Made by a program: the position numbers and the translations under genes
Source of the DNA: Escherichia coli
GTDB taxonomy: Bacteria; Pseudomonadota; Gammaproteobacteria; Enterobacterales; Enterobacteriaceae
DNA length: 3,126 nt
Assembly: GCF_003334385.1 (NCBI RefSeq)
Contig: NZ_QOWN01000095.1
Direction: 5' to 3' (one strand)
Notes under the pieces: model-generated
Seen by the model: the letters and a program-made list of their open reading frames with translations, nothing else
Told to the model about the DNA's origin: nothing
The model's database searches: none
In this document: piece after piece, positions 1-1,867 of the stretch
Position numbering within the stretch: position 1 is the first letter of the stretch
Layout of the letters: every line of letters begins with the position of its first letter

Positions 1-1867
1 GTACATTCACCAGTCCCTGACGCTGCTGAAGCAGTTCATTCCCCAGCCCCAGCAGACGGTTGAATTCCGTATGCTGAACATTCATCTGCAGCAATGCCTG
101 GTATGCTCTGTTCTGCTCTGCTGCCTCCTCGCGTATCCTCGCCACACGGTTGTATTCCAGTGACGCCAGAGCTTCCTGTACAGACTTCGCCTTTTCCTGC
201 ATCTGTGTCAGTCGTGACTGTTCAACCGCCAGTTTGCCAGTTGCCTCCGCAAGGCCGTGGGTTATAATCTCCACACCTGAACCACCCTGTGGATTTTCCT
301 GCAGCCAGCGCTGATAGTCAGCAATCTGTGTTTTCAGTCCCCGGACTTTACTTTCCTGCTCAGCAATCAGACGATTCTGCTCTTCCAGTGCCTCGCGGGT
401 TTTACCCTCATTATCAGCCAGTTCCGGAAGGGTCATTCCCGGTACCTTTGCCCGGATTTCATCAATCGTCGATGCATACTGACGGGCGGACTCCCTGGCC
501 TGTTCCTGATTCTGGTACACCGTGTACCAGGCACCGGCTCCCAGCATCAGTAAACCGGGTATCCCGCCGACAAGCGAAAGCAGGGATGCCGCGCCACTTT
601 TCAGCATTCCCGTAACCGACGTGGCATTCTCCAGCGCCTTCCCCGAGGCCGCCACCGCCTGATTCGACTGTACCAGTGCGGCATTGGCCACAATCATGGC
701 CCGGCGTTTTGCGACGGCATTCTGTGTGGCCAGCGCCTCCGCACTGCTATTTCTGGCCAGTGCAAGTTCAGCCTGTGCCAGTTGCCAGGCACGTTCTGCC
801 GCCAGCGCGTCAGCTGCCGCCTTACGCTGCACCTGAACAGCCGCATCTGCCTGTGCGGCTGCAAGGGCAACCGTCCCGGACTTCGCCGCGATCAGCTCTG
901 TGGTGGCCTTTCCCACGCCTGCGGCCATATTGCCAAAGTACCGGGCCACCCCGACGGCAACCAGCGCCCCCGCGGCTGTTGCCACATTATCAATATTACC
1001 GGCAACACCGTTCAGCACGCCGGAGAGCGTTTTCGTCGCTCCGCTGGCTTCATTCGCGCCACCCACCCAGGCCATAAAGGCGTTTTCCACCTTTGTGATC
1101 CCGTCAGAGACCGTTTCCGGCATGGCGGCATATTCATCACGCAATACCCCCAGCTGGCTGATTAACGCAGGAACGACTTTATCCGCCGTCAGTTTGCCGT
1201 CGTCCGCCATCGCCTTAAGGTCTTTACGGGCCACGCCCATACCCGCAGCCAGTGCACGTACGATCCGGTCTCCGCTTTCATTGACCGAATTAAATTCCTC
1301 ACCGCGTAACACACCCTGTGCCAGCGCCTGGCTGAACTGGGTGATCACCGAGCCCGCCTCTGCCGTACTGGCACCGGAGATTTTCAGCCCCGTGGAAATG
1401 GCCTCCGTCACCTTCAGCACATCATCAGCACTGTAGCCATATTCACGCATTGAGGCTGCCGAGCGGGCAAACAGGGCCGCATTATCTGAAAATGCCGTGC
1501 CCGTCCGCTGGCTGATATCCATCAGCACTTTCTGTGATGACGAAAATTCATCGGATGACTGCGACGCCTGTTTCAGTCGGGCATTCACGGAACTCCATTC
1601 ATCGGCCAGAGAAATCAGGTGTCCGGTGGCAAAGGCACCTGCAAATGCCCCCGCCGTTCCGGCAGCTGAAGCGCGGATTTCCGTCAACTGGCTGTTCAGC
1701 TCAGCCAGGGCGCGTCGCTGCTCCCGGGCGACTGCGGCAGCCTGACGCCCGCCATTCTGCAGGGTCCGGTAATATTCACTGCCCATGCGGGAAGCCCGCT
1801 GGATCTCCGACTGGAATGACTGCGAATTTGCCGAAATTTTGATAATCAGTTCACGTAACGTCGCCAT
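1..1867 (-). CDS. Phage tail tape measure protein, N-terminal ~622 codons; partial, C-terminal end lies beyond the window start
   Basis: Minus-strand frame is open from ATG at 1867..1865 to position 2; I checked 2..1020 codon by codon on the plus strand and found no stop, and hand-translated the rest. An in-frame TGA sits immediately upstream of the ATG (plus 1868..1870), so this is the first possible start. GGAG Shine-Dalgarno at plus 1876..1879, 8 nt before the ATG. Translation begins [18 protein letters not shown] and contains [57 protein letters not shown], which matches the conserved tape-measure N-terminal domain as I remember it. Followed by Ala/Gln-rich helical low-complexity sequence and hydrophobic segments. 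Sits directly downstream of the G/T chaperone pair as in lambda. Confidence 0.85.
   Translation of the reverse strand, partial: [622 protein letters not shown]

Follow-up and report, generated by a model that had tools for sequence, protein, structure and literature searches.

The window analysed here, a stretch of 3,126 nucleotides from contig NZ_QOWN01000095.1 of Escherichia coli assembly GCF_003334385.1, carries on its minus strand the end of a gene for a major tail protein, the tail assembly genes G and T and the front part of a long open reading frame (ORF) that runs off the left edge (Table 1). A sequence-only reading of the same DNA had taken this long frame for the gene of a phage tape measure protein (TMP), guided by a segment at positions 1118-1435 which it read as the conserved core of the TMP N-terminal domain family. 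On the evidence presented below it is practically certain that the frame is the tail tape measure gene of a lambda-like E. coli prophage and that the flagged segment is the core of the N-terminal TMP domain.

Table 1. Features of the 3,126-nucleotide window; residue numbers refer to the tape measure protein.
Feature	Position	Strand	Evidence
Tape measure gene, N-terminal 622 codons (57%)	1..1867	-	Open frame; PHROG 339; 99.5% nucleotide identity to NZ_CP053284.1
Pfam TMP_3 (PF20155), conserved N-terminal core holding the flagged segment	1052..1621	-	E 2.2e-58
TIGR02675 tape_meas_nterm, residues 157-231; family named in the sequence-only reading	1175..1399	-	81.5 bits
Quoted peptide, residues 178-235, with invariant glycines G185 and G224	1163..1336	-	Exact string match; 11-sequence alignment
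Pfam Phage_HK97_TLTM (PF06120), residues 411-621, clipped at the window edge	5..637	-	E 5e-56
Ribosome-binding region GGAGAAAGGUGA, directly before the tape measure ATG	1868..1879	-	Read from the sequence
Terminator-like hairpin AACCGC-UGAG-GCGGUU, then U-run	1886..1906	-	Centroid fold; 3' end of isrK match
T, tail assembly protein, expressed as C-terminal part of a GT fusion	1915..2196	-	PHROG 337, E 1e-39; RefSeq 'phage tail assembly protein T'
Slippery heptamer A AAA AAG, programmed -1 frameshift	2223..2229	-	Shift product open to the T stop
Tail assembly chaperone G, from the first ATG	2220..2642	-	PHROG 344, E 5e-47, alignment from residue 16
Major tail (tube) protein, C-terminal 170 residues	2612..3126	-	PHROG 158, E 9e-82; Pfam Phage_tail_2
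Ig-like domain ending the major tail protein	2645..2875	-	Pfam Ig_3, Ig_2, I-set; PHROG 'Hoc-like'

Translation of the reverse complement of window positions 1-1867 yielded 622 sense codons between 1867 and 2 without a single stop, and careful retranslation thus bears out the uninterrupted frame that the sequence-only reading had assumed. The probability of such a stop-free run, computed from the base composition of the window (58% GC), is about 9e-12, and the longest open stretch in any of the other five frames amounts to 260 codons at most. The frame opens with an ATG at 1867-1865 that is preceded directly by an in-frame TGA (1870-1868), and a ribosome-binding region containing GGAG is found 8 nucleotides upstream of the ATG. 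Of the 622 residues, 115 are alanine and 59 leucine. Judged from the 99.5% identical copy in E. coli SCU-104, the stop codon lies about 1,400 nucleotides past the left edge of the window, and the absence of the gene from the program-made ORF list has the cause that had been presumed, i.e., this listing leaves out frames that run off the source. Positions 1118-1435 map exactly to residues 145-250 of the product, and the 58-residue peptide quoted from this segment is present verbatim at residues 178-235.

Family membership was assessed with profile hidden Markov models from TIGRFAM and Pfam, the check that had been proposed along with the assignment, and the outcome was strongly positive. TIGR02675 (tape_meas_nterm) matched over its entire length (model positions 1-75 of 75 at residues 157-231; 81.5 bits, E 4.1e-23), with a curated cutoff for this family of 21.35 bits (NCBIfam/TIGRFAM). 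Pfam TMP_3 (PF20155) covered residues 83-272 with model positions 2-191 of 192 (197.6 bits, E 2.2e-58), and Phage_HK97_TLTM (PF06120) was found at residues 411-621, where model positions 3-218 of 295 are aligned before the match is cut by the window edge (E 5e-56); in a full-length relative the latter domain is complete (model positions 3-292 of 295, E 1.1e-74) and is accompanied by Tape_meas_lam_C (PF09718) at residues 870-941, outside the window (E 7.6e-18). The profile PHROG 339, 'tail length tape measure protein', aligned with residues 1-622 over positions 3-612 of 1123 (E 5.4e-231), and tape measure families accounted for 22 of the 25 PHROG matches listed. A sequence search of the PDB returned the tape measure proteins gp18 of Shigella phage Sf11 (9occ_M, E 5e-27) and gp46 of Pseudomonas phage JBD30 (8rk3_A, E 3e-22), both aligned through the motif. 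As a negative control, the four longest plus-strand ORFs of the window were compared with the PHROG profiles, and none of them gave a match. With these family matches in hand and no stop within the frame, the assignment made in the sequence-only reading is supported. We also noted a hydrophobic stretch at residues ~424-450 (nt 518-598, minus strand; Kyte-Doolittle mean over 19 residues above 1.4) that opens the HK97_TLTM domain; for segments of this kind in other TMPs, a role in chaperone binding or in membrane insertion at the time of DNA delivery has been proposed.

The relatives of the window lead to the same identification. Positions 3-3126 are 99.5% identical at the nucleotide level to the chromosome of E. 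coli SCU-104 (NZ_CP053284.1), in which the corresponding gene is annotated as 'phage tail tape measure protein' of 1088 residues (WP_174147749.1); among the 622 residues encoded in the window only three differ (D148G, V268A and G409R). Matches to the window are present in 1247 of 5426 complete E. coli genomes, at up to seven places per genome, and in phages converting to production of Shiga toxin (Stx) 1a, 2a and 2c as well as related Escherichia phages, at 94-97% identity over about 78% of the window. Compared with the Stx1a phage, the codons for residues 1-315 show 32 synonymous and 10 nonsynonymous differences, and 37 of the 48 nucleotide differences in this part fall on third positions. 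In SCU-104 the tape measure gene is preceded by genes for terminase, capsid, portal and head-tail connector proteins, the major tail subunit, the tail assembly chaperone and T, and followed by M, an ompC-like porin insert, L, a C40 peptidase (K), I and J. The resulting order V, G, T, tape measure, M, L, K, I, J is common to prophage PP6 of enteropathogenic E. coli (EPEC) E2348/69; the major tail protein lies inside the window, and M, L, K, I and J were seen only in the SCU-104 and EPEC PP6 loci, outside it. The porin gene between M and L in the SCU-104 prophage (L001 4895-6058) is a moron. The identity of the tape measure gene as such is already known, the family being well described and near-identical public copies being annotated accordingly.

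To describe the conservation of the flagged segment, its 106 residues were compared by tblastn with a phage collection. Matches were obtained in 977 records, of which 855 span 80% or more of the segment; among the rows sampled, most carry the annotation tape measure or tail protein. The hosts of the matching phages include Pseudomonas, Escherichia, Klebsiella, Salmonella, Acinetobacter, Vibrio, Streptococcus, Burkholderia, Moraxella and Bifidobacterium. Ten homologues (21-57% identity), taken from phages whose hosts are distant, were aligned with the window segment. LRGEEF and GKLTA are the majority consensus, and the signature of the tape measure N-terminal family had therefore been given essentially correctly. 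The finer pattern given with it holds exactly for L-x-x-M-A-x-x-G-K-L-T-A-D, whereas the preceding spacing G-x-x-x-x-L is off by one, five residues being present between G211 and L217. Invariant positions in the 11 sequences are G185 and G224 only; nine more (T154, G165, S167, Q177, Q180, E191, S194, A207 and L217) are conserved to at least 90%, and in JBD30 the LRGEEF element is replaced by VSSDAW. Strict conservation in these sequences is thus confined to a few residues.

Our best guess for the LRGEEF...GKLTA core is a structural or assembly role, either in the docking of chaperones or as a signal for stopping at the final length. A structure predicted by AlphaFold2 without an alignment for residues 83-272 was all-helical and unreliable (mean predicted local distance difference test score, pLDDT, 49; predicted template modelling score, pTM, 0.39), and a literature search for TIGR02675, PF20155 and TMP_3 gave only irrelevant papers. 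A preprint of 2026 names the most conserved helical TMP segment, of ~130 residues, as the activator of the STAND sensor SeAvs18 (10.64898/2026.01.04.697583). The segment sensed may be the conserved N-terminal TMP domain; its coordinates are not given in the text or supplements of that preprint (10.64898/2026.01.04.697583). A PADLOC search with the tape measure protein gave no match to a defence system.

Comparison with the Stx1a phage Stx1_14744 and EPEC PP6 indicated that the tape measure gene is a mosaic. To the right of a break near position 922, window positions 923-3126, i.e., residues 1 to ~315 of the TMP together with T, G and V, are 97-99.6% identical to both. To the left, positions 1-575 reach only about 70% nucleotide identity to these relatives, and positions 576-922 cannot be aligned. 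SCU-104, in contrast, retains its 99.5% identity on both sides of the break. The drop near nucleotide 922 (about residue 315) places a recombination junction between TMP_3 and HK97_TLTM, in the region of residues 273-410. Judged by these identities, the N-terminal TMP domain moves together with the V-G-T block, and the middle of the protein (window positions 1-922, residues ~316-622) has been exchanged.

The tail assembly genes upstream of the tape measure gene hold a canonical site for a programmed -1 frameshift. The G gene ends in GCC AGA AAA AAG TAG, and the A AAA AAG contained in it (2229-2223, minus strand) is a textbook -1 slippery site. A slip by one nucleotide would give ...ESARKK-VARPEIRFLMRLAL... 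and a frame free of stops until the T stop at 1915, resulting in a GT fusion. The profile PHROG 14766 (224 positions) spans both parts, its positions 2-122 matching G and 133-224 matching T; in public records G and T are annotated as separate coding sequences. The tape measure ATG at 1867 lies directly downstream of this G/GT pair with its slippery site, which is the placement by which a TMP is recognised in siphophages. The start of G is ambiguous. The ATG at 2642, giving a gene of 423 nucleotides, is used in the Stx1a phage and makes G overlap the end of the major tail gene, while RefSeq relatives start at the equivalent of the ATG at 2594 (375 nucleotides); we favour the shorter form because the alignment with PHROG 344 starts at residue 16 and because AAGGGGA precedes the second ATG. 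Lambdoid tail tubes are usually decorated on their surface by an Ig-like domain such as the one that ends the major tail protein.

Between T and the tape measure gene, within the late tail operon, 8 nucleotides past the T stop and 18 nucleotides before the tape measure ATG, a terminator-like hairpin (1906-1886) is the sole element in the centroid fold of the junction, the overall fold having a z-score of 0.12. A scan for consensus terminators did not report the hairpin at 1886-1906, probably because G-U pairs lengthen the stem and use up the T-run. The Rfam model of the Hfq-binding small RNA family isrK (RF01394) matched the hairpin and the 3' end of T over its full length (1886-1953, minus strand; E 0.0003-0.004). 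With 27.1 bits the match falls below the gathering threshold of 50 bits; an identity with isrK was rejected and the match is taken to be driven by the terminator. Known isrK sits in the late-regulatory (antQ) region of Gifsy-1, not among tail genes. The 93-nucleotide junction is identical in SCU-104, the Stx1a phage and EPEC PP6, and hence a covariation signal is impossible among these sequences. We further considered PasB, an Hfq-dependent small RNA (sRNA) of EPEC that was reported inside the structural operon of phages matching the window. The hairpin is not PasB, as the northern probe for PasB has no match in the window at up to three mismatches. PasB resides in the gap between I and J, antisense to the tail genes, of EPEC E2348/69 prophage PP6 (NC_011601.1, 1466343-1466261; L003 ~6262-6344), and its probe matches exactly in the I-J gap of SCU-104 (L001 2635-2657), which lies some 5.3 kb left of the window. 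In Tree et al. (2014), neither the main text nor the supplements name an sRNA at tape measure or tail-assembly genes. The hairpin could be an attenuator, the 3' end of an sRNA or incidental. That it gives rise to a 3'-end-derived sRNA, or serves as an intra-operon attenuator that keeps the low-copy tape measure and tip proteins below the level of the tube protein and the chaperones, both of high copy number, appears quite improbable to us.

Concerning function, the protein most likely acts as the ruler of tail length, held by the chaperones G and GT encoded upstream; this and the following scheme are modelled on lambda gpH, HK97, TP901-1 and other siphophages. The TMP, with its ~1088 largely helical residues, would be kept soluble and extended by many copies of G and few copies of GT, both encoded directly upstream, and its C-terminus would be anchored in the tail-tip initiator complex formed by M, L, K, I and J. 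The T part of GT would recruit the major tail protein, which would polymerise round a TMP trimer up to the N-terminal end, the length of the TMP setting that of the tail. For lambda, tail length corresponds to about 0.15 nm per TMP residue, and at this ratio 1088 residues would yield a tail of about 160 nm. The conserved N-terminal domain would come to lie in the tail lumen at the end nearest the head; there polymerisation would stop, and the tail terminator and the DNA end would meet the TMP. On infection the TMP would be expelled ahead of the DNA, and the hydrophobic stretch around residues 424-450 may help to form a conduit across the cell envelope. In lambda, as in many other phages with long tails, the TMP is bound by G and GT, the T domain recruits the major tail protein, which polymerises around the TMP, and the TMP fixes the length of the tube (review PMC5009743). 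In TP901-1 tail length decreases linearly with deletions in the TMP, the N-terminal 154 residues of which are indispensable (PMC5099701). In JBD30 the inside of the tube is occupied by a trimer of the TMP, the C-terminus being held in the baseplate core, and the protein has been proposed to exit first on infection and to form a conduit for the DNA (PMC11445458).

Counter-evidence to the tape measure identification was not found, and the points that weigh against our interpretation are limits to its reach. The window holds the front 57% of the gene; that the C-terminal part is intact as well would follow from the relatives. Neither the homologue structures nor the AlphaFold2 model (pLDDT 49) establishes the role of the N-terminal domain, and the N-terminal deletion result from TP901-1 would carry over to the window protein by analogy only. 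In addition, the portal gene of SCU-104 is annotated as frameshifted (L001 12857-15603); this prophage copy may be defective, and the window gene, too, may sit in a defective prophage.

This last point, concerning a prophage 99.5% identical to the window, lends some weight to a different view, in which the gene descends from a tape measure gene but lies in a decayed (cryptic) prophage that no longer builds infectious virions, and the dispersal of related segments over several places per genome, as described above, is likewise a usual feature of the partly defective lambdoid prophages in pathogenic E. coli. Within the window, however, the frames for the tape measure protein, T and the major tail protein are all intact, as is the G/GT slippery site, the differences from relatives are mostly synonymous, and the same module occurs in phage records named after isolates (vB_EcoS-569R3) as well as in records of Stx-converting phages; we therefore regard decay of the prophage as unlikely. 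Very improbable is the proposal that the TMP carries, in its conserved segment, an embedded enzyme or other module that takes no part in length determination. Some TMPs do contain peptidase or lysozyme domains, a peptidase in the case of pb2 of T5 (PMC11445458), but neither Pfam nor NCBIfam detected a catalytic domain in the window or the full-length relative, where TMP_3, HK97_TLTM and Tape_meas_lam_C were the only families apart from TIGR02675; moreover, the segment is predicted, with low confidence, to be all-helical, and its invariant residues are two glycines, with no conserved histidine, cysteine or set of acidic residues suggestive of catalysis. Finally, the view that GC-rich DNA has produced the long frame by chance or as a shadow ORF, with the true gene on the plus strand, e.g., at 900-1436, can be dismissed: several plus-strand ORFs of 100-256 residues do exist at 58% GC, and the one at 900-1436 shares its wobble positions with the minus frame in such a way that codon-position counts cannot separate the strands, but the reading is refuted by the overwhelming Pfam, NCBIfam and PHROG matches of the minus-frame product together with the negative result for the plus-strand ORFs, and is contradicted as well by the improbability of 622 open codons and by all public annotations, which place the coding sequence on the strand of the minus frame.

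The value of the tape measure assignment is mainly one of annotation. The largest gene of the window, off the ORF track because it runs off the edge, can now be labelled with confidence, and with this label the window is placed in the tail-assembly module (V, G, G-T, H) of a lambdoid prophage of E. coli such as occurs in Stx-converting phages and among the prophages of EPEC and enterohaemorrhagic E. coli. Of modest wider interest is the conserved N-terminal TMP core, for which homologue structures provide no model. Nothing in the module will surprise a phage biologist, and the hairpin before the tape measure start lies outside the flagged segment at 1118-1435.

Among known systems, the tape measure proteins Sf11 gp18 (PDB 9occ, chain M) and JBD30 gp46 (PDB 8rk3, chain A) share the TMP_3 core with the window protein; in Sf11 gp18 it reads FGQSIASGTIRAEEFNSI...DGKLTAED as compared with ...DGKLTADK in the window protein. 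Similarity to both is restricted to the N-terminal ~240-360 residues. Both structures model no more of the TMP than its C-terminal ~32 residues, and neither offers a structure of the N-terminal domain. The relation to HK97-type tape measures is a strong family match to PF06120, a likeness that rests on the family model and not on the HK97 sequence itself.

Lambda gpH resembles the window protein in its place within the V-G-T-H-M-L-K-I-J module and in the same upstream G/GT frameshift arrangement. The two differ in size, gpH comprising 853 residues versus 1088 in the SCU-104 relative. In that relative the lambda-type C-terminal domain Tape_meas_lam_C, common to gpH, is added beside the HK97-type domain PF06120. 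No TMP N-terminal family beyond TMP_3 and HK97_TLTM (Pfam) and TIGR02675 (NCBIfam) was found in the window, and none of lambda type; the label 'tape-measure protein H' in some GenBank records consequently rests on position and function rather than on N-terminal sequence. Closest to the window protein are the tape measures of E. coli lambdoid and Stx phages, i.e., WP_174147749.1 from SCU-104, BCI49250.1 from Stx1_14744 and WP_000212986.1 from EPEC PP6, all of which occur in the same gene order, the Stx1a phage and EPEC PP6 sharing with the window the near-identical stretch from V to about residue 315 of the tape measure protein.

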